DNA of 62,418 nucleotides, counting the filler, from Sphacelaria rigidula (lineage: Eukaryota): assembly GCA_964200075.2 (NCBI GenBank). It is 7 parts of 7 records of this genome, joined end to end, with 100 filler letters (N's around TTAATTAATTAA, not from the genome) between each part and the next. Parts side by side here need not be neighbours in the genome. Positions count along the whole stretch, not along the records: positions 35,728 to 44,558 come from CAXNAA020009997.1; 6 more parts are not named here. One strand, given 5' to 3'. Below the pieces are notes generated by a model. The model worked only from the letters and a program-made list of their open reading frames with translations. It made no database searches and was not told where the DNA came from. Each line of letters opens with the position of its first letter. Positions within the stretch are counted from its first letter, which is position 1. Below, piece after piece: positions 4,751 to 50,900 of this stretch. The translations under genes were made by a program, and so were the position numbers.

Positions 4751-4926
4751 CCCCTCCACACACCTCGTAACAGTTGTGTCACCCCGCGACTCAGACGTAC
4801 ACCCGGCCTTGAACTTGGTCCTTCAGTGCCGAGTATAAGTCTGAGGTGTGGGAGGATCAACCGCCAGTCCCTGAGGCAAAGGCTTTCCTCAGCAACCGCA
4901 CGCACAGGTGGTAGCAAGCCTTTTTC

Positions 4927-5157
4927 AAATGACCCAAGTGTTGCTGATTTGAACTTGACCACAGCGGATCATGTAATTCTCAATCAGTTGGATCGAGCTC
5001 CTTCCCCGCGATTTTCAACACGCACGGACCTACCTTCGGCCCAAATGACACAAGTGTTGCTGATATGAACGTGACCACATCGGATCATGTTATTCCAAAT
5101 CAGTTGGATCGAGCTCCTTCCCCGCGATTTTCAACACGCACGGACCTACCTTCGGCC
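4927..5157 (+). repeat. Two ~116-bp tandem direct repeats inside the Gypsy element
   Basis: aaatgac.caagtgttgctgat...aatcagttggatcgagctccttccccgcgattttcaacacgcacggacctaccttcggcc occurs twice. Confidence 0.9.
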
Positions 5158-28150: not shown

Positions 28151-29433
28151 TAATGAAGCGAACGAGCAGCCCCCGCCGGCGTGGAAAGGTGCACGGGAAT
28201 GCATATGGAGAAGAGAGAAAGGGGAGGAGGAGGAAGAGAGGAAGGAGGAGGAGAGGGGAGAAGGGGGGGGGGAGGGGGGAGGGGGGGTTACGTATACTGC
28301 GATGGTGTTGACATTGGATCAACCGCCGGGGCCACGTGTGCAAGGCGTACAGGGAGTACAAGCTGTAGCGCTGACAGAGGACGGCATGAGCGTGTATTTT
28401 GGATCGAGGTGCGTGTTGACTGTTGACGATGCGTGCAATGAACATTTCGCTACGGCGTATACTATCAGGTCTTATTTCTCACCAGGTGGAAGGGCATCAT
28501 GTGGCGAACGCTTTTTTCCGGCAGCAGTTGCCAGGCAGCCTGCCTGCAACACATGTACAGTAGCTGGCGGATAGATTTAAATCGACCAACCGCCGGTCTG
28601 AACAGCATGATGCTCATCACATTGGCTTATTATTAGACCCGCGGTCTCGAGCTTGAAAAACCAACGACAAGGCTTACCCTATCAAACATCTCTTTCTGTG
28701 TTTGAAATGGATGCTTCGGCAGTTAACTGAAGGTAGTTCTCTTTACTGTAGAAAATAGCAGATTTACCACGAGCGTACATTTGAGGGAGCGATAAATATG
28801 TTGTAGATGCATGCGGAGGCATCCAAAAAGAAAAGAAGGAGAAGGGAAGAACAAATACGAAGTAGAAAACAGCGTATTCGTTTTCACATTCATTTTCAAC
28901 AGGGGGAACACAAACGATAGGCCAGCACCACTTGAGCACCTCGAGATTTCCCCGCAGCAGCAGCTGGCGTATATATATTTCTAGGGCTGTAAACTGACGG
29001 CTCTGGTCAATAATGGGAAGAGCGAAAAGGATATCCTTTACTACTGTAGGATAGTGTGGGATAATATCGTGGAGTCGCATAAAGTATGACCTATTCACGG
29101 GAGACCCTACACAGCGCTGTCGAGGAATATCTCAAATACTCCGGGCACAATAGCAGAGGCCCACGGCCCACATGTTTCTGTATCCGAGCTTCTATGCTAG
29201 CGCCATAATTTCTGTAGCGTAGGAGGGCTCCTTACCTACGACAAGAGGAAGACCGGGAGTGATTTTCTACGCGCAAAAAATCTTCGATCTGTCGACCGCG
29301 GATCTGACAGAAAGGGCAAAGGCAACAAAAAACAACATAAAACGAATCAAAATAACCCAGCGGAGCGGGCCGGCGTGCTGATAGCGTATGCAGGTGCATA
29401 GCAACCCCTTTCTTGCTTTGTCTCTGGTTACAC

Positions 29434-32400
29434 ATGGGGACGGATGATGACCGCAAGCTTCCATCGCAAGCCTTTATAGCAGATGGGGCCATGGCAAGTG
29501 TCAACACCACCGCAGCCGACAACACCATCGGTTCGGCGCCAACATCGACTTCTAGAAGCAGTGTTGGAAGCAATAGCCAGCAGGAAGCAGTATCTTCCGC
29601 TGGAGGCAGCACTAACGCCGCCGCGACGGACTTCTCGCGCAACCTATACCAGTCTCAAGGGTACACAACCGATGGCCGTAGTACAACCGCCGCCGAGGCA
29701 CACGACCATAATAATCATGATCATGGGAGCCAAGTTTCGTGGTTCGTGGTCAAACTCACGATAATCTCCGCTCTTGGAGGCTTTCTGTTCGGGTATGACA
29801 CCGGGGTCGTGTCGGGTGCGATGCTCCTCATCGCGGACGAGTTCTCGCTCACCGAACTTCAGCAAGAAATCGTCGTGAGCATCACGATCGTGGGGGCTGT
29901 GACGGCCTCCCTCACAGGCGGTCCGACCATGGAACACTTCGGTCGAAAACCAGCCATCCTCACCGCCGCCGTCATCTTTACCCTCGGCGCCGTGCTTCTC
30001 GCCGCGGCCCGGACTTACGGAGAACTGGTCGCGGGACGCCTTATTGTCGGGCTAGGCATTGGCCTCGCGAGCCTGACGACGCCCGTATATATCGCGGAGG
30101 CCGCGCCTAGCCACATGCGCGGTACACTAGTGACTCTAAATACGCTCTTCATCACGTGCGGCCAGGTGGTAGCAGGCATCGTGGACGGTTTGTTCGCGGA
30201 GACGCCTGCGGGGTGGCGGTACATGCTAGGCCTGTCGGGGCTACCGTCGCTGTTCATGATGATCGGGTTTGTCTCTCTCCCTGAGTCGCCACGTTGGCTC
30301 GTCGCCGTCGGCCGCCGACGGGAAGCGCTGTCCGTGCTTCAGACTATCCGCGGGACGATGGACGTTCACGCGGAAGTTGAAGAAATGGTGGAGTCTTCGA
30401 CCGACCGGTCGTCGCTCAATGGCGACAGGCTTCGGGCGAGCGCCACCGTGAACGATCTGTTGGAGGACCCACGCATCAGGCGAGCTCTGGTGCTTGGGTG
30501 TGGGTTGCAGATGTTACAGCAGCTGAGCGGGATCAACACCGTGATGTACTACTCGGCGACAATCTTCAAGATGGCCGGATTCACAATGAATGCGGCTATC
30601 TGGCTGGCAGCACTCACGGCGGCCTCACAGTCTGTCGGCGTATGCTTCGGGTTGTACTTCATTGAGGTCTGCGGACGTCGGATGCTGGTGCTTTCGTCGC
30701 TGAGTATGGTGCGTTTTGTACGATATGTTGCTTGCGGTTGTGTTGAAGCATTTATCCCTTCAGGCGCCAGGAGATGGACGGTAGAGTGCGTCTGACCAGT
30801 CATACTTACTGAGCATTGTTCCCGATCGAAGAGATGGACGCATCTGGGCGGTGAAACTGTCAAAGAGGGATGAGCTATACCGCACCTTCTCAGTTGTATC
30901 TGGATGGAACTGACGTACCAGCTTATTCAAAGGGCATACCCCCGACTTTTCATCGATTGGGGCCAGTGAACACATTGTTACTGCAACAGGATGCGAAGCG
31001 TTTGTGCTTTTTTTCTTGTATCGGTTTCACTGGGCAAGCTATCGAGATCGTCTTTTTGGTTGCCATTAACGATGTAAGTGTTCGCCACAAAGTTTTTAAG
31101 CGATTAGGCTACATGAACCGCTTGAATTTGGTGCATCGTACGTGTGAAGCACTGTCACGCTCAAGATTGCCAGGAAATGCGAGCGTGTCGATACTGCACC
31201 CCCTTCGCCACTATTGGTGTCGTCTGAGACTGCATGATGAGAATTGCCGGGTACCTTGCAAGTATTACCTTTCGATTTCACTGAGAATTTGGTCCACCCA
31301 GTACAAGTTGTCGCTGATTCCCGCATTTTCCCGTATTTTGCAGATCCGTCGTGTTGTATGTGAGCATGGTAGCGTGGTATTCTGTCTGTCTCATATGCAC
31401 CTTCGAAAAAAGAAAGCTGCGCTCCCCTCGTGCGGCACGCCAAGGTATGAGAGTAGTCAAACGGACCGGGGTTTCAATCACTGTCCCGCGGGGAAGCGGG
31501 GTCGATGAAATCAGAGCAGTTTTTGATGGGATCAACTCCCAAATGTGCGAAGAGCCAGTCTGTTTAAAGGACTGTTTTTGAGATATCTTGGGGAAAATAT
31601 GGGCTGCGAAAAATGCGGCAAAACGAAGAAAAAAACACTGTGATGGGTCCATGTAATTTCTGCTCCCACAGGGGTTTCATTATATTCTTCGTTGTTCTTC
31701 GCGCGCGACCGGAAGGCTACAAATGGGAACTTTCAACTACAAGATGCGGCAAAACAAGATTGTAATGCGCAACCGTTGGAACCAAATGCCCAACATTTCA
31801 AGGCATGTAACGCCATCTACAGACCCTCACGTGAGACGAACACCTTCAGACGTATCCACAGTCCACCGCAGTATGGGGCTTTTCATTGGCGTTGATGCGA
31901 TGCTGGGCGAGCAACAGACAACGCTACTTCACTTTTCACGGCCGGTTGAAGCAAAGCCGAGCACAAGATCAACGAGCTGATTGAGAGCTACGCTCTGGGA
32001 TGTCGAGCTTTTGTCGCGCATCGTTTATGTTCGTGATCAAGTTATGAACAGCTTCTAGGGGAGGGATGATATTCGCCGGGGTTCTGATCGTCCATCTCCA
32101 TTTATCGCCGGGCTTTGTGGTTCATGTGGACTCGAAACGAGTGACGACGAGCATAAATCAGTCAGTCCGCCTTCTCTCGGTTGGCATATTTTTTCAACAA
32201 GACGGTCCCGTGGTAATAATGTGAGTAGGCCCATTGTATGGCTTCACATATCTGAGTAATTTTGACATGTGTTATTTTTTCAATGAGGCGACGTACCATT
32301 TTACAATTCGTTCTCTGTAGTTGTATGGCCTGGCGCGCGGACCTGCTTATCTATGGGTTGAGGGGCATATTCCCGCTGCCCCAGACCCGATCGACCCATG

Positions 32401-34222
32401 ACGGGGCGCTCGCCTGGTGCTGGTACGTTGTGTGCTTTCGCTCGGCTGCCCTGCTTTTCGCGCCGGCAGGTAAAGAAAAGACGAATGCCTGCTATTGCGT
32501 CATTTGTGTAGATAACAGCCAAGGTTGTTTTTTACAGATTGAAAGAGCACAGGCCTCCCCCCGTTTTACTTTGAAATAGTGAACTGTATGCCAGTACTGA
32601 ACCAAATACGATTTCACACGTGTACCGAACTGATGTCATGTTCTATGCGCGGTCTCAGCACCTACCGTGAGTCTTGACGAGTCACTGTGGGCACTGCATT
32701 TGCCTCAACCCCTCCTTGTGAACTTCTGAGTTCGAGTTCTGTTCCCGCGGAGCACTCTGAACCCGAGAATATAGTACTTACTCATTTGACAGTAGTGCAA
32801 AATGGAGTATCTCAACATTTCGATATGCGGCCAGAAAATCACTTCACAGGTTCACACATCACGCGCATCACTATCTAATCTATAATGTGCGGTCTTCGAT
32901 CGGCCATCACTCCTGTCGGAGACGCGCTCACCTATGGCGTGGTGGTTTGGGTCAACACTGTAACGCGTGTATATTGATTTCACGTATTGAGCCGGTCGCC
33001 TCGGTGGCTCAGTTGGTAACCTCGAAACCTCCTGACGGTTGAGTAGGGGGGTTCAATTCCTGGAGCGATCTGCGATTTTTTCTCACACCATGCCCAACAG
33101 TGGAGAGCGACTTTGTCGTGGGTACACAAAATTCGACGTAACGGTCGATGAGGGAAAGGGGCTGCTGAACCCCTCTCGCGATCAAAAATAAAGGCAAGCA
33201 CCGCAGAAGGAAGGTGGGGTTCTAAAAAAAAATCTGTGTTGACCTTCCTCCTGTGTGACCCCACCCCGGCTGGTGCGCCCACATACACCGAAAGGTGCAG
33301 ACTGGTACCCAGGATAAATGGGACGACAACACACACAACACACGTATATATAGTAATCTCTATGCTGCACGTGGGACGGTACTATAGCACATCATAACAT
33401 ACCTCACGCGTTCTCCGCTGCACTACTACCATGGCTCCCCGCGGTGAGACACAACATGTGAATGTCTTGCTCGATTCAGCCTTTTTTTACAAACGCACAA
33501 TATACTTACCTGTACTGGTTACAGCAAATTCCTGGCTTGTTTCCCCCCGCTAACATACCTGGCACTATATTAGCGTGAGGGCACTCGGACTTAACCCCTT
33601 CCGCCCGTTCGCGTACGCGATGCAGGTGATCGTGTCGCTCTTCTGCCTGGGTGTAGGTTTTCACCTCAGCGACACCCAATCGGAAGGTTCTGGCTACGGA
33701 TGGCTAGTCGTGTTAGCGATGGTGGCCTATCTGCTCGCCTTCGGGGTGGGTATGTCGAGCATTCCCTGGACTGTCAATGCGGAAATATACCCAACGCACG
33801 CCCGCTCCCTCGGCACGTCGGCATCGACTACGACTAACTGGATTGGCAACGTTGTGGTCAGCGCGACGTTCTTGAGTCTTGCGAGCGATCGCGCACTGGG
33901 CCAGGACGGGGCGTTCTGGCTTTACGCGGCGATAGGCATGGCGGGGTGGGTGTGGCTGTATGGGTGCATGCCGGAAACCAAAGGGTTGTCCCTGGAGGAA
34001 ATTGAGCTGCTTTTCGCGCGAGAGGGGGATCCCGTACGTCCAGGGGAAGGCGATGACGGCGGCTGCGACGGAATTGGGGTTGGACGCGGCGGAGCGCAAG
34101 TTCGTTCCGGCGGGTTCGTGTTGTTGCAAGGGAACTCCCCAGACGGTAAAGATGAGGCGTCAGAGGTGCGCACGGGTAGTGGGCCTTGGAGTAGCTCAGG
34201 GGGGAACGCGAATATGACGTAG
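29434..34222 (+). CDS. MFS sugar porter, myo-inositol/polyol transporter-like (exons 29434-30708 and 33626-34222; ~623 aa)
   Basis: GGFLFGYDTGVVSGAM, FGRKPAIL, PVYIAEAAP..RG, PESPRWL, QQLSGINTVMYY, GRRMLVL, GMSSIPWTVNAEIYP, PETKGLSLEEIE. Phase-0 intron ATG|gtgcgt...gcag|GTG. Confidence 0.93.
32988..33340 (+). mobile_element. tRNA-derived SINE in the transporter intron
   Basis: A-box TGGCTCAGTTGG, B-box GGTTCAATTCC, (CA)-rich tail, 7-bp TSD cacgtat (32981-32987 and 33341-33347). The 3' part is shared with 48095-48213. Confidence 0.85.
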
Positions 34223-35727: not shown

Positions 35728-36792
35728 GGAGAGATGGGTTGATCCCTTGAGACCACGGACTCATCCCGAGGAAGGGGAGGGGTTCAAAGTGTGTGAAAAA
35801 AAAATAGTCGCAATAGGCCTACATTTTATGCAGTACATCTATTGTCTTGTGTAACTATTGGCCATATAATGTCCAAGGCATAACTATCGCACGATGAACA
35901 TCAATGGCTGTGGCACTGTCCCTGCGCTGCAAGGTTGAATATCTTATACTACTATTCCACACGCTAGCACCCTCAATGTAGAAGAGCACCGCACCACGAA
36001 GTATCCCTGCATTGAACTCTCCGCACTGATAAAGGCGTAGCATTGCCATCATCCCAAACGTGACGAGTAAATGCAATCATTATCCTTTTCTAGTTCCAAA
36101 ATATCCCCAACCATGACTCGGGGTGGAGTTTCTCTCAAAGTTGGCTATATACCCCAAAGTCGTATCGTAGTCCACAAGGTGGAGGGCTGGCAGGGGAAGG
36201 ACGGATCCCGTCAAGGATACCCTGAATCCGATTGATTAAGCTGCCGGATGTAGTGAACCCTCTAACCTGACGCTAGTACAAGCGAGGAGAGTCTGACACT
36301 GGACTCGGAGACAGGACGCACATCGTTTTGAGATGTTGACAAGAAAGGTCCGCGAGTCACAGAGACAGAACGGGTGTGATCAGCAAAGAAATGAGTGAGG
36401 GATAGATTGAGTCGCCAAGTTGCATGGAGACCACCCAGCATCACGAAGAGAAACGGGGTAGAAGAATACGAGACCACATGACAACCTTTAATATGCACGC
36501 ACTACATCGCTCCTGCGCTCCGGCAGCCTCTGTGCATTTCCTTGCGGAGGCCTTTAGAGTGCTTGTAAGCTTGCTTCAGGCAAATGTGGAAGATACTCGT
36601 TTTTTTCGACCCAAAATAATTTGGCACGGAGAGGGAAGTGGGCCGAGTGTGGTACCGACTTCAACGTTGGCATGTATCCTACCCCTCTCGAACTGCGCGC
36701 ATCATTTTTGCACCGTCCGATAGAAGCGACAGGTTCACATGGCAACGTGCCCGCGCAGCATTTCGTCGGTGCTGCAAGCGTTATCGTCTCAC

Positions 36793-39700
36793 CCTGGAAG
36801 CTCGGTCCGCCGCTGCCGACACAGCAGGGGACACCGTACGCCGTGCGAGTGCGTTTTGTTTTGACCGGGCCGCCTTCAGATCCTTCCGCATGCCTTCGAT
36901 TTTGTCGGCAGCCGCCTTCCGGCCGACCTCAGCGGGAAGTGTACCCGCCGCCTTTGCTCGACGAAACGCCTCGTCTGCGATAGCCACCTTCGCGCGTAAA
37001 GAAGAGAGGCAACGGAGCGGGACGTTAGAGCGCGTCCCGACTTGTATGACTAGGGCTCGGCAGAGATTTTGGGTCACGCCGTAGCTTGATCAACCTTGAT
37101 ATTATATGTAGAGATACACCAACCAACGAACTAATGGATGTTTGTCAACGGCTGTGAACCTAGCCTGTGAGCCCAGCTTTCATTTGAGCGGTACTCGATC
37201 ACTTCTGTTTTCACATTCGTGGAGATTATCGCATAGATTCGGTTTTGCAAAAAAAGCAAACTTGCACGCTACTCGAGGAGCTCAAACGAACTTCATATCC
37301 ACTTCGGAGAAACGCTACACACCCCTCGTACAAGAGCGCGCTACTTGTGTCTTGAAGGGGAATGCGGAACAGATTGATTGATGATTGGTTGATTGTCGCA
37401 CTTTAACTGAACCCCCAGGGGTCCAGCCGTGGTCTCATGGTAGACGTACCACAGAGTACCGGCGAAGCGAGAGAGGAAAAAAAGAAGGCTATCACAGCCG
37501 GACGATCAGATTTCTCTCGGGCTGACCGGAAAAGGTATCGACTGGGTCAATGACGTAAGTAGGGAGTAACTCGGGTATCCATATAGATGTCTAGGAGCAT
37601 GACAACGTCAATGAGTGTGCGAGGTAAGTCGGAGGTTGTCCATGTGCATACAGTACCTTCCTTTCCTTGATCGCCACATCTCGCTCCGCACGGCGTGTAT
37701 CAGCGAGCGCCTCCTCAACGCCTCCTTCCTGCTCTTGTGTCAAGTTTTAAATGGCAACGATGACGTCGGTGGCGTTGTATCAAGACGAGTTTCAGATTCA
37801 AATTAGAGCCAGGTTGTACACTAGCGCAAGACTGTAACACCCACTGGAGTTCGCACCCGGGTGCTAAGTAAAAAACACAACCCTACCGTGCAAATTGCAC
37901 TCCGACAGAGACCAAAGGTCGGTGCGGGGCAAAGGGGGATCATCCCGTAAATTTTTCGCGCTGATCATAGATTGAGCGACTGTACTGTGCAGATCGCACG
38001 GGGGTGCAGACAAAGGAAGCGGTGTGGATCACAAGGGGCCAGGTTGTTACGATGCGTGATCGAGAAATCACTACAACAGTAGTTGTATCTGATGCTGTCG
38101 GCAGAAAGGGACGGCCGCACGAGTATGCATGTACATCGTGGACACCCCGCACATCATTGGACCCCGAAGAAGCGAGAGAGAATATACAAGCTCCGTTTAT
38201 TCGCAACGTAAACACGATACGAGAGCTGGGCGACTGGAAGCATTTTCCGACGATTTCTATGTCGATATGTCGAGTCGCTGACCACGGGTAGCCGACATGT
38301 CTCCATCAACAACAGCTACAGCATACCAAGTCGACCGGCTGACTTCGCAACAGCGATACCAAACAAGTGGAGACGTCTAATCACCTCCGCCTCGAACATT
38401 TCGGCTAAGCGTTCCTCCTCACTCGGTGCGCCCCTCTCACGCCCGGGAGCAGCCACGGCTTTCCATAGGAGCTGGCCTTGGTACTCGCACCACACGCGGC
38501 GGCAAGCGCGAACAGTCGCATCGAGAGCCCGAGTCCCTTCCTTATGTCTGCCACAGAGTCGTCAGAGACGCGATTCACAAAGTCTGCACAGTACAGATGT
38601 TGTTGGTCACACGCCCGAAATGTTGACGATGAGATGTACTGCTTTCATGGGCGAGAAGATGATTACGGATCGTCAACTCATGTTTCGCGGGACGAAGATC
38701 TGAACAGGAACAAGCCAGAGCCGATACGCGATCCCGGCAAACGCCTGCAATTTCCGGCAAGTAAGTCAACTTTCGCCACACCTGTTGATGCTGCTGTATC
38801 AGTCGACGGTTTGACAAGTCGTGCTACGATGGGCATCCGCGATTTCGGAGTACCATAGTGAGGCTGGGGCATAGGCGCATTCCACCCAGAAAGATGCCTG
38901 AACTCAATGAGTGTGTTCTTATCATCAGCCTGGTTTCACGTTGTGCGTACTCATGGACACTTTTTCAACGGTGCGATAGATGTTGACACCTTGAGCGCTA
39001 ACGTGATCCATCTTCTTGGTCAGCACAATTTTTCTTGGTTCAGAACTCCGTCGACTACATTATCCCAATCGTTTACGCTCGAAGGACGAAGCGACATTCA
39101 CCCAACCTTGTCGCGGTCGACCCGCCCCGCTTAGCATCGGAACGGCGACCATCGCCGCCACCGCGTGAAGCGTTCCCGCGGGTGAAAGACGAAATATGCG
39201 CTAAATCGCCCGCCAAGTCTGGATGTACGTCCGTTTCACCGCAGAGCATGAGGTTTGAGACGCTCGAGAGCACGGCACGCTTGTCCCGCAGATTCCACGC
39301 GCGACGCACCGCCTTTGCAAGGGTTATATCACACAATATCGCTATCTAAGTGAGACAAGTAAGCCATGAGGAGCCGTACGAGTGTACCGTGGCGGCCAGT
39401 GGTATATCCGCGAGTTGGTGCATTTTAAGGTGGCGCGGAACCGTGGTTTCTAGCAGCAGCTTGTACAGTAGGGATCACATCCAAGGTGAACGATGTGTGT
39501 GTGTGTGTATCGATTGATGGATGAAGTGTTGCATATTCACGGATCCCCTTGTAATCCAGCTATGGTCACAAGATGGACCAGCCCAAGGTCAACACAGCGA
39601 AAACACTTGCCGATGTAAGCTCGAAACAGGGGGAACATCTAGAGGGAGAACAGGGGAAACTGAAAGACGAGAAACAACAGACACCGAACACATTTTTGTC

Positions 39701-42700
39701 AGCAGCACGTCAAACCACAGGTGTGTTGGGTATGCATGCCGCATTTCATTGGTCCATTTGGTTACTTCATTCATTCGAGTGGTCCATTTGGTTGCTTGAT
39801 TCATTTGCGTGGCCCACTCATCTGGGTTGACTAGATGATGGATTGTCGCGCATTCGATGGTCTTCTACGAACCTAGTCGTGGTTTCAAGGAAACGATTTG
39901 TTGAAACAAACTCGAACAAAATACTGTAGGCAAAATTACATGCAGAGATATGCCATGAGAAGCAAAGTTTTTACCGCTACAACTTACATTGCGAAGGCGC
40001 TCTGTCGCCTCTTCTTGCGCCTCCCGCCAGCCCCCCTCGGCGCACAGCATGGGCTCCTGCGCTCGCCGCCTAAGCAGCTCCCTGGCATCGTCAAACGCAT
40101 CGCCCATCCAGGCCTGCCCCCCAGTGTGCACGACAACGTCTATCCCTCTGCTGCTTCCACCTGCGCTTGCAGGGTGCGCGCGAGACATGGCTATCCGCTC
40201 ACGCAGGACCCGCCAAAGCGACAGCTCTCCCGGCGGGAGACGGTCTGGTCGATCCTCGCTGATAGCGACTACTTGCAAACGCGGCTCAAAGCACGCGCTC
40301 GGTGTCCGAAATCTGGTGTCACAAGCGGGTATAAGGCGTAGGGAGGAGGGGAAAGGCGGGCGGGAAGGAGACCGTGCTTGAGCCATGTTCTCACATTGGG
40401 CGCTTCGGACATTCTACTCGCCTCGTGTTCATCTCCTATAGCATTTTCCCTTGAACGGTTTCATCAAAAGTACCTGATGACCATACATGAAAGCGCCCAA
40501 CATCACGGAGACGCAGGAGATGGTAAGTACTGTAGGCCTTTACCACCGCGCCCAGCACCGGATCAATTTTACGCCCCCGCCTGCGCCACGCCTTGCCGCG
40601 ATAAAGTGCCGAAAATCCGAAATCATGTACGTCACGTTCGACCCGAAAACGTTGGGCGTCCGCCGGTGGAACGAAGGGGCACTTGTGATGTTAAATGCCG
40701 CAGTGCTTACTTACGATTGCTCGACGAACCTGCCCACGCGGCTACGGGCGTCTCCCGCGCAAACCCCTCCGAAGCACGCCGTGTACGTTTTCCCGGGCCG
40801 TAGAGCTTCAAGGCAACCACTCCCGCTGTCGCCGCCTATTCGGAAGGCTCGTGGGCGTCGAGAGGGAAACTGCAGGGTTGCCGAGGCTACGACGCGGCCC
40901 CGTGGACAGGCGTCGTCAGCAAGGGAAACGTGGCACGACACGCTTGCTGTTGGCCCTAGTCCTGGGGCAATGTCCACCTCGAGGAGGATCACCTGCATGT
41001 AACGAAACCAAGTAGTTACCGTAAGGAGTAGACGAGAGAGGCGCGGGGTATTGGTTAAGTTTTTTTCTGTGCCGATGTGTGTCATTTTGGGCACGATTTA
41101 TGCACCCCGAACGTATGCGTATATCGCTCGCTGTGGAGGAAAAGTATCACGGGTCGGACGAATCAATGATTCGTCTGGAAAATTACATACTTTTAGCGGA
41201 TTTGATTCGTACCGTACGAATCAGTCCTTGATTTTTGTCTTCAGCGTTGCAACCCAGGTTCGCGTAGCCTAGGCACGCGGAATGGCGCAAAAATTGCTTG
41301 GGAACCTTTTTGACCATCCGTGGACTTTTTTCCCTCTTTCGAGCAATCAGGCCTGAAAAAATCGTGGATTTGGTGATTCGAACCGGCGATGATTCGTCCG
41401 AACCGTGGAAAGTATGACCTGGTGCTGGTGGCTTTATGAGACAGATGCGTCTCATGCGTGCATGCATAAGTCCAAGGTTTGCAAACAACTGGATGACCTG
41501 GTCGATATAAACGGTTCCCGAGCAGGTAGACGGATGCCTACCGCGACGGGTCAAATGGACTCGTGAGAGGTTGAAGACGTGAAGCTAGGCGCATGCCGTA
41601 GTTTGTTGGACGACACAAAGTGATTCTCAAGAAGACGCGCAAAAACACTATTGAGGAGCAAATTTTTACATTATTTTTTGAAGAGGAGACAAAACACGAG
41701 ACTATTTAACGTACGCAATGACTAAAGTTTCAGAAATTCGATGCGGAATACGAGAATTACATCGAGAGCCCCACAAAAATGAAGAAGGCATCACAGGATT
41801 CATTAAACAACCCGTTTCAAGAAAGAAAATAACGCTATTCTAAAAGACGCATCAAACAGCAAATACGTACCCAATCATACAGCGTAGATGTACATGAATT
41901 CTTTAAGGATATGTCTTGAATGTTCATGAGTATTCGACGTTCATTGACGTACACTGGTGGCAGTTCACCCGTTGTATAGGGTAGTATCAACATCCCCTCC
42001 CTCCGTTGCTGTGAGTTTCTTTGTGCGTTTTTGTGACGAGAAAAGGTTACTAGACGTAACGTACTACGCTGGATAGCGATGAAGATCTTTTTTATACCAT
42101 TTTTTTTCTCACATACTTTTTGCGTGTGTTCGATGCCCACGCCATCATTCTTCAGGAGAAAATCGTTTTTGAGTCGTGAAATTTCGCCTGCTCTTCCCGC
42201 GCGCTTTTTTGCGAATCCTTTGTGCCGCCTACTTGACTTTGGTGGGATTTCTGCATATATCACGGTGATCGGACCAGGACTCGAACCCGGCACCTTGTGG
42301 TCGAAACTTTCTACGATAGCCCCCTCCCCAAAAAAGTGGCTACTTTTGGGAGGCAAATTGTTCACGTAAATCGAAATTGATAAAGCCGAGCACACGGAGA
42401 AGCTGGGAATTCCCACGCTTGGGCTCGTTATCATCAATGTCGCCCATATGAGGCGATTCATGCAGCCTGAAACCAAACATCAGGCGCTGTATGGCCATGT
42501 TCTTTGTGACAGTTTTGGGCTGTTTTTTTTTGGGGGGGGGAAGGGCTATCGTAGAAAGACTCCCTCCCGAAGCAATCAGTGTCACGTCCTAGTGTCGCCA
42601 ATGTGAAGAGTTGATGGGTTCTAGCCGTACTCTTGTAGTAGTTTGCCCCTTCTCTACAGGGTTATATCCGCATGTCCTCTTGAGAAGCCACACCCCCAGT

Positions 42701-42984
42701 TCCAAGAAATCTACAGGTGAGAGCCATATCCAAACGATCGAGTCTGCGGGCAATCGATGCTACCATACTACACGGCCTACGTGAATCATTCGTCAGCCCG
42801 GTGACCTGCAACTACTAGTCTACCTCGAGAGCATCCTTACCGCTGAGTTGGACGTCACTTCCCCGATGATGGGACCAACGAGCACGCGTACGCCCGGTCT
42901 GCAGATCAGTCGGGCCCCGTAGGTGTACACATCTGCAGAGTCGGGGCACGGAAAGTGGTGTCCGTGCGCATCTTGATGCGCTTC
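36793..42984 (-). CDS. Partial gene, PhoD-like metallophosphatase-fold protein with degenerate active site (exons 42984-42841, 40992-40730, 40312-39988, 39312-39107, 38547-38385, 37728-37657, 36987-36793)
   Basis: All six introns are GT-AG and phase-compatible. Spliced product: VLVGPIIGEVTSNSA-VILLEVD...LRPGKTY...RVGR-FRTP...IDVVVHTGGQAW...LRN-AVRRAWNL...VLSSVSNLMLCGETDV...ACRRVWCEYQGQL, then an Ala/Glu/Lys/Arg helical stretch. Confidence 0.78.
42060..42302 (-). mobile_element. 5'-truncated tRNA-related sequence, probably a SINE, abutting a MITE
   Basis: Minus strand reads gaccacaaggtgccGGGTTCGAGTCCtggtccgatca (T-arm/B-box and 3' acceptor side). The 5' half is absent and the distal boundary is approximate. 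Confidence 0.5.
42303..42562. mobile_element. MITE family A copy 2
   Basis: gaaactttctacgatagcccctcccc ... gggctatcgtagaaagactc; internal sequence collinear with 2519-2766. Confidence 0.85.
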
Positions 42985-43223
42985 CTGGCGTGGTGTAGCA
43001 GAATGGGATTCCCGATGTCATCGACGCACACCGACGGAGAAGAGGCTCGCAAGTCTGAGTGCCAGCGAGTTACAATACGTGAAAAGATATATCTGCTGCG
43101 TGAAAGTATCGTGTCCGATCGACAAGGGATACCTGGCCGATCTTATATTATCAGATACCTGAATGAATGGTTGTTATTGATTATCATCGTCATCGTTAGA
43201 ATTAGTAATATTAGTAATAGTGA

Positions 43224-43266
<43 letters not shown>

Positions 43267-44558
43267 TCCGCACATGGTACTCTGAAATTGAGCATGTGTT
43301 TGCACGTGACGGGCGCTATTCTTGGCAGAAGGTCGATACGCTTGTCGTGGAATGTGACGGCACTCAACCTACTCGGAGTGTGATCGAAAAGAAAACCACG
43401 AACATAATTCGATTGGTTGACGATCGCTGCTCTATCCACTCGGATTGCTTTTTACTACATAAAAAACACCACTCAGTTATGGCCTGATATTACAATAACA
43501 GAGACTGTCAGAAAACCTGTTAGTGTTGCGGGTGCTGGTTCTTCGGTTCCACGGAAAATGCGGCTGACATGTTGCAGGTTTTTGATCCAAGCACTAGGTC
43601 GCCCCGGTGTTCAAGCTCATGTGTCAACACCCAGTTTGGGCAAAATTAGTGGCCCAAAACAGAGCCAAGAGTATATTGCTCGCGCACGTCGCAATAACAT
43701 CTAGATGTATTTGCAGGATTGAATGCCCCAGCTAAGCAGGATATTGATTGCCAGAAATGCCGAGTACTATACCAGGAGTACCTTGGTTGACGACATCCCA
43801 AAACGCACGATCCACGGATCTGGCCCTACAACGGTCCCCTCAATAAGCTTTTCCTAGCCTAGATTTCATGTCGTGAGCGCCGCACACAGTTGGAGATGTC
43901 TCTACACACATACGGTGTGTAAACTTCACTCCAACTGCCACGTGTAGCTCTCTCTCTTCCACAGCTACCGTCAAAATCTTGATGCGATCCATTGCCCTAG
44001 CGTTTTTCGGCGGCGGAGAAACACACCTCTGAGCAGCACGCGTTTCTTCGTGCTGCTGGACGCACGAGCTTTGTGAATGACCTCTGAGGATAGGAGACAA
44101 CTTCTGTATAGAGTGGCATTGTGCGTGCCTTACTGCAGCGCGGGGTATCTGCGGTGGCTCTAATCCCGTTCATTTAAGATCGTGCATGAACATCCACACA
44201 TTGAAGAAGGATACCATGCCTCTACTTGAGCAAGTATCAGTGCGAGCGCGACGTTGTGCCTTATACTATATTCGAGTCACTGACAAAAAGCCCTGCTGAA
44301 TCCAATCAGTTAAGTGGCCAATATTGCACTCAAATACTTCATGTAATATACATTGAACCTAAATATGTAGCGAATGTTGCGTTCGGATGAGTTCAGACCC
44401 AGGTACACCGGCGAATTTTCGGAGGTTTTTGAAGACGCAATGGCCCGACAGCCACGGCGAGAGGTCGAGTCTTCACAAAAGCTCTCCACATGTTCGATCG
44501 CATTTGTCGAGATCGTAAGGGCGAGGCATAGGTGCCTGTGCTGTCAGCGCGTTTGGCG

Positions 44559-44974: not shown

Positions 44975-47900
44975 CTTCTGCAGTCAGCGGAACCCCACCG
45001 GTGACCAGAGCAGCCCATCTCTCCTCCACCTGAGGTGCGTTACTGGAAATAGAAGTACGCTATTTCGGGGGTTTCATGGAAAATCATGCAGTATTACTTT
45101 GTCATCTTGGACTTTTTTTCTTCAGCTGTATGGTATGCGAATCTAGTCGTAGATCGTATGCTTTCGAAGCAACTAGAGCCATCATTCCCACCACCAGCAA
45201 TAACACGCAACCCACCATGCACCCGTTGGTGTCGTCAAGCAAACTGCCGGACTGAGAGGATGCTATCTTGAGCAAGAAGTCCCTCAGAGACTTGAGCGAA
45301 TTCTCTGGATCTGACATGAGCCTCTCCTGGAAGTCTTGTAGATCCCTCGGGGAGAGTTCACGCTGCAGCCGTCCCACCTGGCGCCGAAACATATACAAGA
45401 AACAGTACACCAGACATTTATCTTTGAATAATCCACCGTTGCTTTGTAACATTAGCGCCATGATTGGATCGCTTCGTATGTAGTGTATCATCAGTAGACC
45501 CTACGCAAAATGCTCAGAGTAACTTCGACGTTGTGGCTGGGCCCAACGTGTGGATTGGCTACCAAGGTTGAACAACCACAAGAGAGATCTCCCGACGAAG
45601 CACATAAATTTGAACATCAGCGCGATAACATGTGACCTTGTCGTGTAGCTATGGAGGATAACATGGAAGCGAAGTAACCCACTCTAACAATAAATTACTG
45701 TACGCAGTCTAACTCTCATGCATGGCATCGTTGAACCCAATGTGCTCATTGCCTGGCTGAAAATTCCAAGATTCATCATTATTTCTCCAAACGAAGATAC
45801 ATTAAATCGCTGTGCGCGTTATTTCCTGTACACCCCTCAGCGCGATCGGTACACAGTCAGTACGCGTCAAAATCTTCACTTCGGGAACCCTGTTGCGTGT
45901 CGCCCTGCAGACCAAAGCAGCGATATGAAGCTTCTACACCAGTCGCGGAACGTTTTTGCCGCCTGTTGGTGGTTAAAGGTTGGTTGACTGCGAGGCATTT
46001 TGTTTCTTTTCGGATAGACAAGGACAGACACAGTTTTGGCACATCGCAACAATCATACGCACGCACACACACGGAAATTACACCGCGAGAAAGAGGTGAG
46101 CATGTACAGCACAACAGAGGTATCCAAGGGTCTTCCAACCCAGGGCTCTCGACATATCAGCCTGCAAACATGTAACGACGCAAAGTTCAAGTCATCAGCG
46201 GGACGAACCGTTAGTCGCAGTACAGAAGAAATGTTATGTAAGTGCAGAACGCTATGGTCACATTCGGGGAGTACAGGAAACATGTGCGCGCGCGTGTGTG
46301 TGTGTTTGCGCAAACATCAACCTCGAGAGCCTTCTTTATTCCAATGGTCAAACATATACATCTGTGCACTTGTTCGGTGATGAGTGGCCGTGGCGCGCTT
46401 CCTCGCTGTCCACCGTCAAGATTAATGTCGCCAGAGATCTTGGTGGGGTTCAAAAAATGACGACTGACCCGCTCGGGGCGTCGCTCGTTGTCCCTGTCAT
46501 TACCGTTCTTTCGAGAAATCTCATCCTTGCCAGAGAACACTCGGAAACCACCCGCAGAATATCCCGCAGGTACTATTTTGGAACCTCCTTCTGAAACCCT
46601 TTCAGAGATTACTCCGAAACTACAGAATATCCCGCAGGTGCTATTATGTAACCTCCTTATGAAAACCGTCCGTATTTCTATTTACCATGACAGCATGATC
46701 GCCGTGATGGTGTCCGAGATTTCTATAGACAACACGTTGGTCCAGTCCATAGACCACACCAAGTTCCGTTCTGCGCATCCCCCGGTGAGCGTTGCTAAGA
46801 GAGGTCACTGTCGCGCTAAATTTACCCCGATAGTGCCGACTTGATAGACTTGATGACCAACGACCTCTTCGTGAAGATGTTTGCCATTTGTTCGTTCGTG
46901 GACACGTGCATCAGTTTCATCGTCCCATTTTCGATATACTCGCGTGTGCACTTCAGCGTCATGTCTACATGCTTGGTACGCTTCCTGAAACCAGCCTTTG
47001 ATGCCGCTCGATTAGCAGCCGGATTATCACAGAACCGTGGGGTTCTCATGGCGATCCCCATGTCGTGGAGGATGTCTCTCGTGACAATCGCATGACGTAC
47101 ATCGTAAAACAAACGCTGTCCATTCTGCCCCCGATGGCGATGAAGTTACTGGCATCTGTGGCTTCGAAATTCAGGCGATTTGTGATCCGTTGATGAGTAG
47201 GAGATATCCGGTGATGCTCCAGCGGTTCTCCGTGTCTTGACCTGTAAGTCGGAATTCGAGCCATGGTGTTCTCGTCCTTGGCACTTCTCCCGTTTTAAAT
47301 ACCGACGTTAAGCGTGCGCGGAAGGTAGCGGAGTATATGTTGTAACCCCCGCCAGTGTTGAATGGAGAGAGACACTACAAGCCGGCCTCGTTTTTTTCAC
47401 CAGGAACATCAGCTTCCCCGAAATTCTCGTGTAGGGGAAACGTGAACTGTCGAGTTCCTCACCATGATCTTGTCTCGTCGATATATCTATTCCCGGGTCG
47501 AGCACAGTCGAAACCTTGCGGACATCGGTGTACCTCATCCCTTCGACGACGATACTGCTAGCGTATAGTGCCTGATCAAGCTTGGTGCCTTCGTCCGGAG
47601 CATCGAAGTCTCGCTCTTTGTGCCTTTGCATCAGGTGATTAACCCTCTGCTGCATTCCCTCTTTGAAGTCCTCGACTAAAAGGATACCGTCCACACACGC
47701 CATGAACACAGCAATCCGTCCGTCTTCTACGCAGCAGTAGTTCGTGCACTCGGCATACCTGCTGCTTTTTCCATCCAACGCTAACAATAACGTTGCGTAG
47801 CTCCTTTCACATTTCAACGCCAATTGCTTGAAACCGTAGATGGCGTCAAGTACCCTCACGATGTTTCCATCCGGAAGCTCCAGCCATGCACCTTCCGAGA

Positions 47901-50900
47901 GTGGGGCATTGAAATACACTTGATTGAAGTCCAGCGCTCAAAGTTTTCACATGGCGGATTCGGCAAGGGCAGTGCCACTACATCGAAACCGATGACTGTG
48001 CTAAATGTCTTGGAAGTCTACCCCGGGACGTTGAGTGAGGCTCCCTTTGCCACGAGACGTGCCTTCTGCCGTTCGATTTCCCCGGGGTATTAAAAACAAA
48101 TAAGAAAAAAAAGCTCCTGTGTTGATCGTCCTCCTGTGTGATCCCGGCTGATGCGCCCACATATACCGAAAGGTGTAGACTGGTGCCCAGAATAAATGGG
48201 ACGACAACACACAGTAAACTGCACGACATGTACCGAGGGTGAGATGAGTGGATTCGTCAAGATTATGGACCTGTCCTGAGGGAGGGAACAGGGAGGGTGT
48301 GCGTGATAGACACATGGACCGACGGAACGAAGGAAGAAACTGACGGAATCACGGCTTGGAAGTGGGCCGCTCGTACACAAGGCAACAGCTATGGGCATTT
48401 TGTACAACCCCGATAGGCTCACAACCAGCAACCAGGTGAGGAAGGGAAGGTACTCATGTGTTGCTTGCTCTAGTCATTGACCATGCATTCCTTTCGAGAC
48501 GGACCATCGTTCCTACTGCACATAGAGACATCCCCAGCGTTGGGGCGCTCATTACGCTTCTTCAATACATCACACATAACCGCTTTTCATAGATCTCGTC
48601 CCCTTCCTGTTTCGCTGTCTGTGGCCACCATCTATCTCCTTGTGTCGCGGCCGTCTACTCGCCATCATCTAGTGTACCAAACGATTTCATGCCACCTTCG
48701 TTCACTTCGCTCATTGCCCCCTATAGCACACCCCGTTCCTCCTCGTATAGTTCACATTCTGCCGCTCTATGATTTCTACTCTTTACTGCTTTGGAGCAAT
48801 TCTGTGCTTCTACTGCCTCCTCCACCCGACCACCGGTATACCTCCATTTTGGCAGGTCCATGTCCTCCACTCGAAATCGCACTTTCAATCTTTTCGCGTA
48901 GTCCGTCGGGACGTGCAGGCATGTTTTCATCGCAATCCCCTTCCTTCACCCCTCGAACATTTCCAGGTGCTCTTCCTCGCCTCCTTTTCATATTAGCACT
49001 TGCTTCCCTCTTACTTCCATCTTGTTTTACTCTCGACTTGTACCCTCCATATTCACCTACGGACGGTGTCTCGTCTAGGTTCCCTCCCCTATCCTTCCAT
49101 ACTTTCTCGACTACGCTATCTCACACTGCTCTAGCCTGCCTTTTCGTGAGTTTCTTCCACACTGCCTAATCAACTATGGCTAGCTATTTCTTTCTTGGCA
49201 TGTCCCTTACATTATACTGTGATTTTGATGTTCTCATGTCTCTATTTCCTTCGAGTGGGTGCATTCCCAATCATGCCCTCAATGCTGTATTACTCGTCGT
49301 TTCAGAGCTTTCAAGTATTTTCTTAGCTGCTGTCATCTGTACTCTTTCCAGCTGCTTCACCAGCTTCGCGTTCCCTTCCCACACTTGTGCATATTATGGT
49401 TTCGGTACAATCACTTTAATCAGAATACACCTCTTAACCCTTTGGGAACCCTCCCCTTCCGTCCCCGGGCCAGACGCCTCATTGTTTCAAACCCTAGCAA
49501 AGAAGAAAATATGGGAACAGAAAAGACCGACGGCAACCATTTTCACGGCGGAAGACTACAGAAAAGTCCTCCAACATACACCGTGCGCGCACTAAAAATG
49601 TCACCCCGGTGCGGTCGGATTAGTTTTGTCCAGTGAGGGACGCAACGGGTCAAGTTTGTTCAAGTTTGTGCACACAGCCAAAATCAGCACTTGCGTGCCT
49701 GAAGTCTATACAAACAATAACCGGAACCACCTGTCTATTTTCTAGATACCGAGTCCCGTGCGGCACGGCACACGCACGTTTTTTACGGGTCTGAAGAACA
49801 CGGCTCGGGCTAATATTTTTGCGTGAAGGCTGTAAATACTCAATCATATGTTGAAAAAACAGAACCTCAAAATCCTCACTTTTCCATTGCCAGTACCAAA
49901 AGGGTCAATCCTAGTTTCCAGGTGCGTGTCTTTCAGTATCACGTATATCTTGCGTATTTGTGCTTTGCTCTTTCTTACTACTTCATTTATGTGTGCATCC
50001 TAAGGATAGTTTTGTCAAGTGTCTCTACGCCAAGGTATGTGCACTGGTCTACGATCGACAATTCCTCTTCTCTCAACTTCAATTGAACTCTCTCGGATTT
50101 TTCTTATCTTGGTTACATCCAAGTATACCCTAGCGCCTTCTCTATTTGCTTCTGCAATCATTTTGTTGTTTCTGAAATCCCCACGAAACCATCCGCGAAC
50201 ATCAATCCCGATACCGTATCTCCTCCCAATTTGACTCCTTGCTTTGCTGCTTCTATTGCTATAATCATGCTAACAGTTAATACTTGACTAAAGTGGGTGA
50301 TAGCGTACATCCTCGTGCAACTCCTTGTAACATATCAAGATATTTCGATGATCCCCCGCCTAGCATCATTATGCTCCTCGCACATTGTAATATTTTGTCC
50401 CATTCTCCACATCTTTCCTCTGGTCCCATCTTCCCACATCTTTTTCCACGGCCTAATTTTCCGTACTGTGCCATAGGCCTTCTGTACGTCTACAAATAAT
50501 CAGTATGTTGTCAGCCACGCGTCTTCCCTACCTTGAATAAACTCACCTGAGGTGAAAACATGGTCTACGCAGCTACGGTTTGGTCCAAACCCTACTTGCC
50601 CCTCGCTGATTTTTTCTTTTTTCTTCAGCATCGTTCGGACTCTCTCGTTCAGAGTACTGCAGAATGTTTTCCTGCGGCGCTCAGAAGTGTTATCCCTGGA
50701 TAATTTCATGGGTCAGCGTTGTATGCTTTATTGAAATGGTTTACTGCTACTACTCCCCTCCACCTCTTGGGTGTATAGTCCTTTTCCCGGACCCAAGTAT
50801 ACGCCGCATCCCACCATGGTAATCATTCCCTCTCTCCCGTATTTCATAAATCCATCAACTATTTCATCTGCCCCTGCTAGATTCCTCTCTCGTAAATTAT

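Follow-up and report, generated by a model that had tools for sequence, protein, structure and literature searches.

Tandem PhoD-fold repeats with lost metal ligands in a Sphacelaria rigidula gene and its stramenopile orthologues

A gene of Sphacelaria rigidula encodes a tandem pair of PhoD-fold repeats, the first of which carries an inserted helical hairpin, and each repeat retains at most one of nine metal-ligand positions. The finding sits within the window, the whole 62,418-nucleotide stretch of contigs joined by N-linkers that was analysed, on CAXNAA020009997.1 (G000:C9997, here C9997; positions 35728-44558). The seven exons on C9997 make up the first third of a brown-algal gene that is intact; they lie on the minus strand, and every intron is GT-AG. 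Spliced together, they give 1,368 nt, or 456 codons with zero stops, and the product is 59-60% identical to the Ectocarpus and Hapterophycus proteins, in agreement with the preliminary description, which had proposed seven exons in one open frame. The GC content was 0.64 in exons versus 0.485 in introns. All 12 splice combinations compared were open, and no alternative outscored the chosen model against three orthologues from brown algae; the least certain boundary of that model is the exon D donor (39107 versus 39102).

Exon A (42841..42984), which is exon 2 or later of the gene, encodes the end of the N-terminal helix and, in repeat 1, the beginning of the Fn3-like domain, with the GP..G.V motif. 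Exon B (40730..40992), both junctions of which are found in RNA-type contigs, encodes the Fn3-like (DUF7800/PhoD_N-like) beta-sandwich, and the metallophosphatase-fold core begins in exon C (39988..40312; 57-70% identity to six homologues). Within exon C, the position of the Cys ligand (40257-40255) reads Glu and that of GDxxY (40128-40108) reads HTGGQAW, and in exon D (39107..39312), assigned by homology outside the RNA-type cover and with a donor uncertain by a few bases, the WDDH(D/E) position (39246-39229) reads LCGETD; the two altered motifs described earlier were thereby placed. Exon E (38385..38547; X1 record 4, X6 record 16) encodes a helix with a terminal EYQGQL, after which the charged insert begins. 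The two helices of the antiparallel hairpin follow in exon F (37657..37728; RNA cover inferred from depth bins) and exon G (36793..36987), which ends in a phase-0 donor. The charged helical run past EYQ.QL, previously put at about 100 aa, measures 117 aa, with 39% D/E/K/R versus 25% across the whole seven-exon model, and forms a hairpin in the orthologue models.

The gene resumes on G000:C5558 with 14 further exons, giving 21 exons and 1,648 open codons in total. The phase-0 donor of exon G matches the phase-0 first exon of C5558 (231-467), where the PhoD core picks up again, and the 21-exon model is 53% identical to Ectocarpus across 1,475 columns; two C5558 exons require GC donors. The earlier suggestion of a larger protein cut at both contig ends, with this domain as one of several repeats, was thus borne out with two repeats. 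A high-copy repeat (35728..35880, no strand assigned) occupies the end of C9997 within the intron leading to C5558, and the start of C5558 carries a copy related to it (78% across 64 nt), in inverted orientation when read along the gene; this repeat pair is the probable cause of the assembly break. At the other end, two protein queries and three patterns (with 50 of 98 and 30 of 55 matches checked for two of them) did not find the N-terminal exon, and no first-exon candidate was seen at 43001-44558.

The proposed junctions were compared with the RNA-type contigs X1, X6, and X7, which are guessed to be RNA (no run is on record as such) and come from three samples of one study at depth 2-7. Two of the six junctions were joined directly (exon 1-2 in X1 record 5 and exon 2-3 in X6 record 17), two (exon 5-6 and exon 6-7) were supported by depth arithmetic alone in X1 record 4, and two (exon 3-4 and exon 4-5), together with the 3' part of exon C and exon D, had no cover in these contigs. 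X1 record 5 extends 142 letters upstream of exon A, letters that are absent from C9997, and X7 record 26 exits C9997 at 36792 with 21 letters remaining. The DNA-like run X2 continues through the introns. Expression of the gene was low in the RNA-type contigs, for which sample stages are not given.

The fold was assessed on structure models of two orthologues rather than of the S. rigidula protein itself. The top match of the Thraustotheca model (pLDDT 87.8) was PhoD 2YEQ (Z 27.4, rmsd 3.2, 404 residues), and 2YEQ also ranked first among 48,161 chains for the Hapterophycus model (Z 17.3, rmsd 4.2 over 300), so the PhoD fold proposed from the S. rigidula sequence was upheld. The Fn3-like N-domain is all-beta in both models and falls within the 2YEQ alignment; 23 of the 31 long homologues gave DUF7800 matches at E<=0.1, mostly below the cut-off. 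Pfam did not recover the domain: none of nine exon or ORF pieces reached the PF09423 gathering score, and there was no match on individual exons or in the homologues P0003, P0005, and P0218. Among other homologues, the Achlya protein gave a sub-threshold PF09423 match (E 7e-5) and P0185 one above threshold (29.8 bits). A sequence-profile search of the family alignment against the PDB returned only a weak fibronectin match; PhoD was reached via ligand-bearing eukaryotic relatives (profile E 8.8e-15 and 2.6e-9) and via the fold. An exon-by-exon PF09423 search across the S. rigidula genome gave no match, which does not prove absence. Fold-search matches to the hairpin (Z 9-11, axonemal entries among them) were set aside as generic helical similarity.

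Bacillus subtilis PhoD (2YEQ; PF09423 plus PF16655) and Streptomyces PhoD-type phospholipase D (9UYA) have an Fn3-like N-domain and a metallophosphatase sandwich in the same order as here. B. subtilis PhoD, however, is a single-domain exported Fe/Ca enzyme, whereas this family, at 13-14% identity to PhoD, has two repeats, a hairpin insert, no ligands or signal peptide, and MGxxxS in the orthologues. Plant purple acid phosphatases (1KBP, 1XZW, 6HWR) likewise combine Fn3 and metallophosphatase domains, and repeat 2 of the Thraustotheca model matched them at Z 25; they are, however, secreted dimetal enzymes whose ligand motifs are absent here, and the sequence ancestry of the family runs via PhoD. 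Also related is an uncharacterised cytosolic eukaryotic PhoD subfamily (the P0064 cluster of Ceratiomyxa fruticulosa, P0092 of Entosiphon sulcatum, P0121, P0123, P0149, P0153, P0209, and P0210; profile-profile probability 100, E 4.8e-82, 453 columns), which shares the GP..G.V and EYQRQLWD motifs. P0123 also has an MG start and two repeats, but the subfamily keeps seven to nine of the nine ligands and mostly lacks a long insert (four members have about 29-36 aa, P0092 has 84).

PhoD binds phosphate through its three metals, and single Ala changes at seven of the scored ligand positions abolish or cripple the enzyme (PMC4223295). At the Fe3+ ligands (Cys180 or Asp, GDxxY Asp/Tyr, and GDxH His, with Tyr and His assigned by motif and not by residue numbers from that paper), repeat 1 reads E, G, and W, with GAC for GDxH, and repeat 2 reads G, S, and N, with GGGLH for GDxH. 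At the Ca2+ ligands D265, D266, N271, N272, and D436, repeat 1 reads G, E, P, D, and A, which keeps only the allowed N272D, and repeat 2 has G and E at 265/266 and G at 436. The Fe3+/2Ca2+ centre cannot be built, and the protein would therefore be a pseudo-phosphatase. Across the family, the 80 fully aligned repeats that lack the GD aspartate retained 0-3 of nine ligands (zero in 31, one in 36, two in 12, and three in 1), compared with 7-9 of nine in nine fully aligned relatives with that aspartate; the ligands were therefore lost long ago and throughout the family, rather than through decay of a pseudogene. A decaying pseudogene or annotation artefact, to which the fragmented assembly, the missing N-terminal exon, and the two GC donors might point, is effectively refuted by the long open frame in 21 exons, by the spliced transcripts, and by substitutions of the same kind in orthologues across stramenopiles, and the earlier view of an intact gene held. 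Judged from these residues, the protein is a conserved pseudo-enzyme, intact, expressed, and conserved, with its catalytic residues lost and its activity presumably with them.

It is very improbable that the enzyme is still active through rewired chemistry with other metals or none. The His and Gln of HxGGQ are near-invariant (140/144 and 130/141), D265S is tolerated in a related subfamily, and a His lies near the GDxH position in S. rigidula repeat 2, but ligand-bearing relatives show the same invariance at both residues, and the ligand positions vary freely to G/S/A/P/R with no new conserved polar set in their place. The Tyr-ligated Fe and His2Asp1Asn1 divalent site of purple acid phosphatases (PMC4223295) has no counterpart here, as the GDxxY Tyr is missing and there is no conserved His or Asn at the other loops.

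A residual Ca2+ site is possible, because the D266 position holds D/E in 30 of 36 repeat-1 units. A dead enzyme with a remnant repeat-1 pocket for one Ca2+, a phosphoinositide, or a phosphopeptide, and with signalling via the hairpin, would also draw on the acids at 181 and 268, on a multi-repeat paralogue with an EF-hand-like N-terminus, and on the dominance of Ca2+ signalling in zoosporogenesis (PMC5322657), and it is compatible with a scaffold role. However, Ectocarpus, Hapterophycus, and Nemacystus have Ala at position 266, 181 and 268 are conserved equally in ligand-bearing relatives and look structural, PhoD binds phosphate through its metals, and no phosphate-related data were found, which makes such a sensor unlikely. 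Of the scaffold or sensor role offered in the preliminary description, the scaffold is the best reading; the phosphate/phospholipid sensor was not supported, since the metals' ligands have been lost and such expression data as were found point to zoospore formation.

MGxxxS/T at a true N-terminus is the N-myristoylation consensus. Among 74 N-terminally complete sequences, 63 begin with MG and 61 have S/T at position 6, the exceptions being mostly ligand-bearing relatives. In six orthologues, the top 19-residue hydropathy within the first 40 aa was <=0.68, with no hydrophobic N-terminus, and a signal peptide appears to be absent from them, unlike in exported PhoD. The MGxxxS start of the S. rigidula protein is taken from the orthologues because its own N-terminal exon was not found; the protein is most likely N-myristoylated and on the cytosolic face of a membrane. 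The orthologues' myristoylation motif, the pan-stramenopile range, and the developmental link are not visible in the stretch alone.

Orthologues were found in brown algae, oomycetes, Triparma, Aureococcus, and MAST-4, most of the stramenopile ones with a hairpin insert of 80-137 aa; a metagenome scan found no close DNA relatives. Repeat-2 units form a single clade (UFB 95; SH-aLRT 99.6), and ligand-lacking and ligand-bearing units split at SH-aLRT 96.9, with a 7- to 8-ligand group nested among dead units at weak support in the 66-unit tree on 246 columns. The family probably originated from the cytosolic eukaryotic PhoD subfamily, with ligand loss and tandem duplication that would be older than the split of brown algae and oomycetes. 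PhoD is treated as a phosphate-scavenging marker, and here its fold persists in brown algae, oomycetes, bolidophytes, and pelagophytes although its chemistry has gone; "PhoD-like phosphatase" labels assigned automatically to the orthologues are therefore misleading.

The Phytophthora infestans orthologue PITG_14227 was expressed at 10-17 CPM in mycelia, rose to 55-59 in sporangia and 316-320 in cleaving sporangia, and fell to 19-32 in zoospores; the peak was 25.5-fold over mycelia and 5.6-fold over sporangia in one isolate of one oomycete in which 22% of genes are >10-fold up in some spore stage. The axonemal gene RIB72 had a profile of the same shape. The adjoining PITG_14228 (304-fold; r=0.997 with PITG_14227) is probably the missing 3' third of PITG_14227. 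IFT46, also adjacent to the orthologue, peaked earlier, in sporangia, as did BBS1 and Cdc14. PITG_14227 stood at 0.25-3.6 CPM in early tuber infection, and PITG_14228 at 0-1.4 throughout infection.

The best reading overall, and on balance a somewhat probable one, is a membrane-tethered pseudo-phosphatase scaffold used in forming flagellate cells. The protein, of about 1,700-1,850 aa, would carry the MGxxxS lipid-anchor motif and a short helix at its N-terminus, as in the orthologues, then two tandem repeats of an Fn3-like domain and a PhoD metallophosphatase fold, the first enclosing the antiparallel helical hairpin of about 100 aa, and then a helical C-terminal domain. Two dead domains and a projecting hairpin would offer binding surfaces at the membrane and would therefore serve as a scaffold during flagellate-cell formation, in oomycete zoospores and, by orthology and with presumably the same timing, in brown-algal gametes and zoospores, where the task might be flagellum or basal-body assembly or the organisation of cleavage membranes. 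Dead enzymes as scaffolds are already a known kind, and Plasmodium GAP50 and retromer Vps29 use the metallophosphatase fold as a membrane-associated scaffold. GAP50 (3TGH) matched the orthologue model at Z 16.4; both are precedents in manner of working, with single domains, another superfamily branch, another anchor, and no sign of orthology.

Sporangial cleavage entails large-scale membrane remodelling, and a dead scaffold for general membrane traffic or cytokinesis, like Vps29 and independent of flagellate cells, would owe its cleavage peak to bulk membrane building. The expression profile unlike those of IFT46 and BBS1, the low-level transcription in the algal samples, and absence from a comparative flagellar list are consistent with such a role, but near silence in growing mycelium and early tuber infection makes it quite unlikely. 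No diatom, Peronospora, Hyaloperonospora, or Bremia name occurs among the 65 and 18 matches listed (8,000 candidates scored), many of which carry no species name; this argues weakly against it, flagellate Plasmopara and Albugo being equally unlisted. The string "14227" is absent from three supplements of PMC3471859 (257 P. infestans flagellar genes), a list that would miss stramenopile-specific genes because it was built on homology to other eukaryotes.

If the zoosporogenesis link is true, the scaffold would be a candidate stramenopile-specific component of flagellate-cell formation and a PhoD-branch addition to the few metallophosphatase-fold scaffolds. A broader proposal, which we put forward tentatively, is a previously undescribed family of double pseudo-PhoD proteins, myristoylated and found throughout the stramenopiles, together with the EF-hand multi-repeat paralogue, as a structural component that is specific to the lineage and belongs to the heterokont flagellar or cleavage apparatus, common to seaweed gametes and oomycete zoospores and overlooked by flagellar catalogues based on Chlamydomonas homology; if true, a phosphate-scavenging enzyme fold was recruited for cell morphogenesis. 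No description of a double pseudo-PhoD family was found in the literature searched, and the readable supplements of PMC6264045 held no match to the family. The accessible rows of the P. parasitica zoospore membrane proteome (PMC12223298) include two PhoD-like proteins of 451 and 610 aa with signal peptides, which does not bear on whether the orthologue occurs there. The PhoD-like mention in the available portion of PMC8035641 concerns a different protein, Pythium M67-PhoD-MORN.

The window strings together unrelated contigs, with N-linkers between them, and the seven-exon gene lies on one of these contigs, C9997 (window positions 35728 to 44558). Homology places the source organism among the brown algae. 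The exons, all on the minus strand with GT-AG boundaries, are A (42984-42841), B (40992-40730), C (40312-39988), D (39312-39107), E (38547-38385), F (37728-37657), and G (36987-36793); the introns measure 417 to 1,848 nt and have a GC content of 0.485, compared with 0.64 in the exons. Spliced in phase, as the preliminary description had proposed, they yielded 456 codons with zero stops and a protein 59 to 60% identical over its full length to the Hapterophycus protein P0005 and the Ectocarpus protein P0003; that this intact frame belongs to a pseudogene is exceedingly improbable. Very high-copy short repeats occupy parts of the introns (35728-35806, 37374-37450, 41285-41411, and 42414-42527).

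RNA evidence came from the contigs of three runs guessed to be RNA, all from a single study. Two predicted junctions were confirmed directly, the A-B and B-C introns being skipped exactly in record 5 of run X1 and record 17 of run X6, respectively; E-F and F-G were inferred from depth bins that agree with the 118 letters left over in X1 record 4, and C-D and D-E had no cover in these contigs. The DNA-like run X2 read through the introns. An RNA-type contig, X1 record 2 (depth 2.3), maps to 36623-36773 in the intron after exon G, where read-through of the donor meets a stop three codons on; it may be pre-mRNA, DNA, or a short isoform.

The protein had also been suspected of being a larger, multi-repeat one split by the contig ends, and this proved correct. 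With the Ectocarpus protein as the query, the remainder was located on contig C5558, which adds fourteen exons, placed by homology and phase only; the whole frame encodes two repeats in 1,648 stop-free codons and is 53% identical to P0003 over 1,475 columns. Exon G ends in a phase-0 donor, the first acceptor on C5558 has the same phase, and in orthologues the two sides of this join are contiguous. At their ends, the two contigs carry related copies of a repeat, inverted when read along the gene; these probably caused the assembly to break. The complete Ectocarpus form, P0218, has 1,846 aa; searches of the assembly did not recover the gene's first exon (about 33 codons), and X1 record 5 carries 142 upstream letters. 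The C5558 exons include two with GC donors and one 25-nt micro-exon, giving two probable GC-AG introns in this part (L019:1101-1125 and 4910-5146), one of them following the micro-exon.

A phmmer search found 248 relatives at E ≤ 0.001, of which the best 150 were listed, and a profile search found 65 long proteins. The matches listed included brown algae (Ectocarpus, Hapterophycus, and Nemacystus), oomycetes (many Phytophthora species, Pythium, Globisporangium, Lagenidium, Saprolegnia, Achlya, Aphanomyces, and Thraustotheca), Triparma, Aureococcus, MAST-4, and one record labelled Durusdinium. They share a layout in which an MG start and a short helix precede two repeats, each beginning with GP..G.V, and a helical tail closes the protein. 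In a redundant set of 74 N-terminally complete sequences, many from Phytophthora, 63 began with MG and 61 had S/T at position 6, the N-myristoylation consensus; no hydrophobic N-terminus was present in the six orthologues checked. In the Nemacystus gene model P0179, the orthologue is merged with an Omp85/Sam50-like gene (PF01103), which is probably an artefact of gene prediction. A paralogous class with at least three repeats and an EF-hand-like N-terminus occurs in oomycetes and in this genome, where the EF-hand-like region is accompanied by a dead PhoD repeat, HVGGQV (C4776, L092; C4793, L090 and L093; C22718, L091); its relatives, of 1,400 to 2,500 aa, have at least three repeats and in some cases a long charged tail.

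Pfam gave zero matches to the exons and, for brown-algal orthologues, weak DUF7800 and nothing else. The proposed PhoD fold was upheld by AlphaFold models of two orthologues. For Thraustotheca P0055 (pLDDT 87.8), Bacillus subtilis PhoD (PDB 2YEQ) ranked first in Foldseek (E = 5.6e-16), with a VIA-align Z of 27.4 and an rmsd of 3.2 over 404 residues; its repeat 2 matched purple acid phosphatases at Z 25. For Hapterophycus P0005 (pLDDT 82.1), 2YEQ was the top match among 48,161 chains (Z 17.3). The ESM Atlas also returned PhoD clusters (0.94 to 0.96). The charged helical run noticed earlier is modelled as an antiparallel hairpin inserted behind the EYQ helix (P0005 helices 395-442 and 449-491). 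The inserted loop measures 80 to 137 aa in most stramenopile orthologues measured, compared with about 29 to 38 aa in two other stramenopile members and in four relatives that bear the ligands.

According to PMC4223295, PhoD activity is abolished by C180A, D265A, N271A, N272A, and D436A and nearly abolished by D207A and D266A, the iron is Tyr-ligated, and all three metals hold phosphate. These positions, the GDxxY Tyr, and the GDxH His were mapped via eukaryotic relatives that retain them. The metal motifs are indeed lost: repeat 1 has E, G, W, G, E, P, D, A, and a non-His residue and repeat 2 has G, S, N, G, E, and GGGLH, so that each keeps at most one ligand position. The loss is common to the family's repeats. 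Of 154 units without the GD aspartate, the 80 aligned at all nine positions keep 0 to 3; where this aspartate is present, nine units are fully aligned and keep 7 to 9. Gly replaces D207 in 34 of the 36 repeat-1 units, and Cys180 is kept in none of them, with Asp there in 2. The His and Gln of HxGGQ are nearly invariant and look structural because ligand-bearing relatives share them; a rewired enzyme is very improbable. The sole ligand remnant, D/E at 266 (30 of 36 units), would suit a residual Ca2+ or lipid sensor, a reading that takes in the originally proposed phosphate/phospholipid sensor and that we consider unlikely. A eukaryotic PhoD subfamily comprising P0064, P0121, P0123, and P0149 (alignment A3) carries Ser instead of the essential D265 (WSDND) and retains the other eight ligands; it may be an enzyme with an altered metal or an evolutionary step towards the dead family.

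Repeat-2 units formed one clade across lineages (UFB 95, 66-unit tree; SH-aLRT 99.6, 28-unit tree), and the duplication therefore predates the algal-oomycete split. The 28-unit tree (455 columns, ligand columns still included) separated dead from ligand-bearing units (SH-aLRT 96.9). The 66-unit tree (246 columns) placed the partly substituted group, with weak support, inside the dead units; a single ligand loss is thus likely, short of proof.

The product is very probably a conserved, ligand-less PhoD-fold protein. It descends from PhoD phosphatases yet fails their ligand and export tests and therefore should not be filed as one. GAP50 and Vps29 are metallophosphatase folds serving as scaffolds, and the product may work likewise; the scaffold half of the proposal is the one that we favor, and we lean towards a myristoylated scaffold that works at a membrane when flagellate cells form.

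In supplement 2 of PMC5322657 (Phytophthora infestans isolate 88069), the orthologue PITG_14227 had CPM of 10 to 17 in mycelia, 55 to 59 in sporangia, 316 to 320 in cleaving sporangia, and 19 to 32 in zoospores; RIB72 had a profile of the same shape, and the BBS1, IFT46, and Cdc14 peaks came earlier. PITG_14227 spans only residues 1 to 938 of the 1,313-aa form, and its neighbor PITG_14228 is probably the missing end of one gene split by annotation, because across eight cleavage libraries it follows PITG_14227 (r = 0.997), and it rises 304-fold above mycelia. These two alone, among 36 genes in the examined table part, exceeded mycelia 20-fold and both sporangia and zoospores 5-fold, thresholds applied by eye and post hoc; the base rate for >10-fold in any spore stage is given there as 22%. 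In a second data set (PMC5635513), PITG_14227 was low in early cultures and up in late ones, as was the paralogue PITG_00075.

The other neighbor, PITG_14226, is listed as IFT46 in the PMC3471859 supplement, and a Globisporangium model fuses the orthologue with IFT46; this adjacency, not seen in brown algae, is a weak hint of a flagellar link. Against a flagellate-cell scaffold, PITG_14227 is missing from a 257-gene flagellar list. Hit lists contained no downy mildews or diatoms, nor the flagellate Plasmopara and Albugo. A general membrane-traffic scaffold, not tied to flagellate cells, seems unlikely. The orthologue adjoins IFT46 in Phytophthora and Globisporangium (PITG_14226 to PITG_14228; P0181 and P0106), and a leishmanolysin-like gene adjoins it in Pythiales.

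No published description of the family was found in the literature searched, which included few subscription papers; in UniRef, two orthologues from saprolegnians bear an automatic PhoD-like name. On adjacent contigs, ORF motifs indicated a multi-exon MFS sugar/inositol-transporter-like gene unrelated to the PhoD-fold gene (29356-34222, plus strand) and a broken copia-like reverse transcriptase/RNase H remnant (46800-47940, minus strand).
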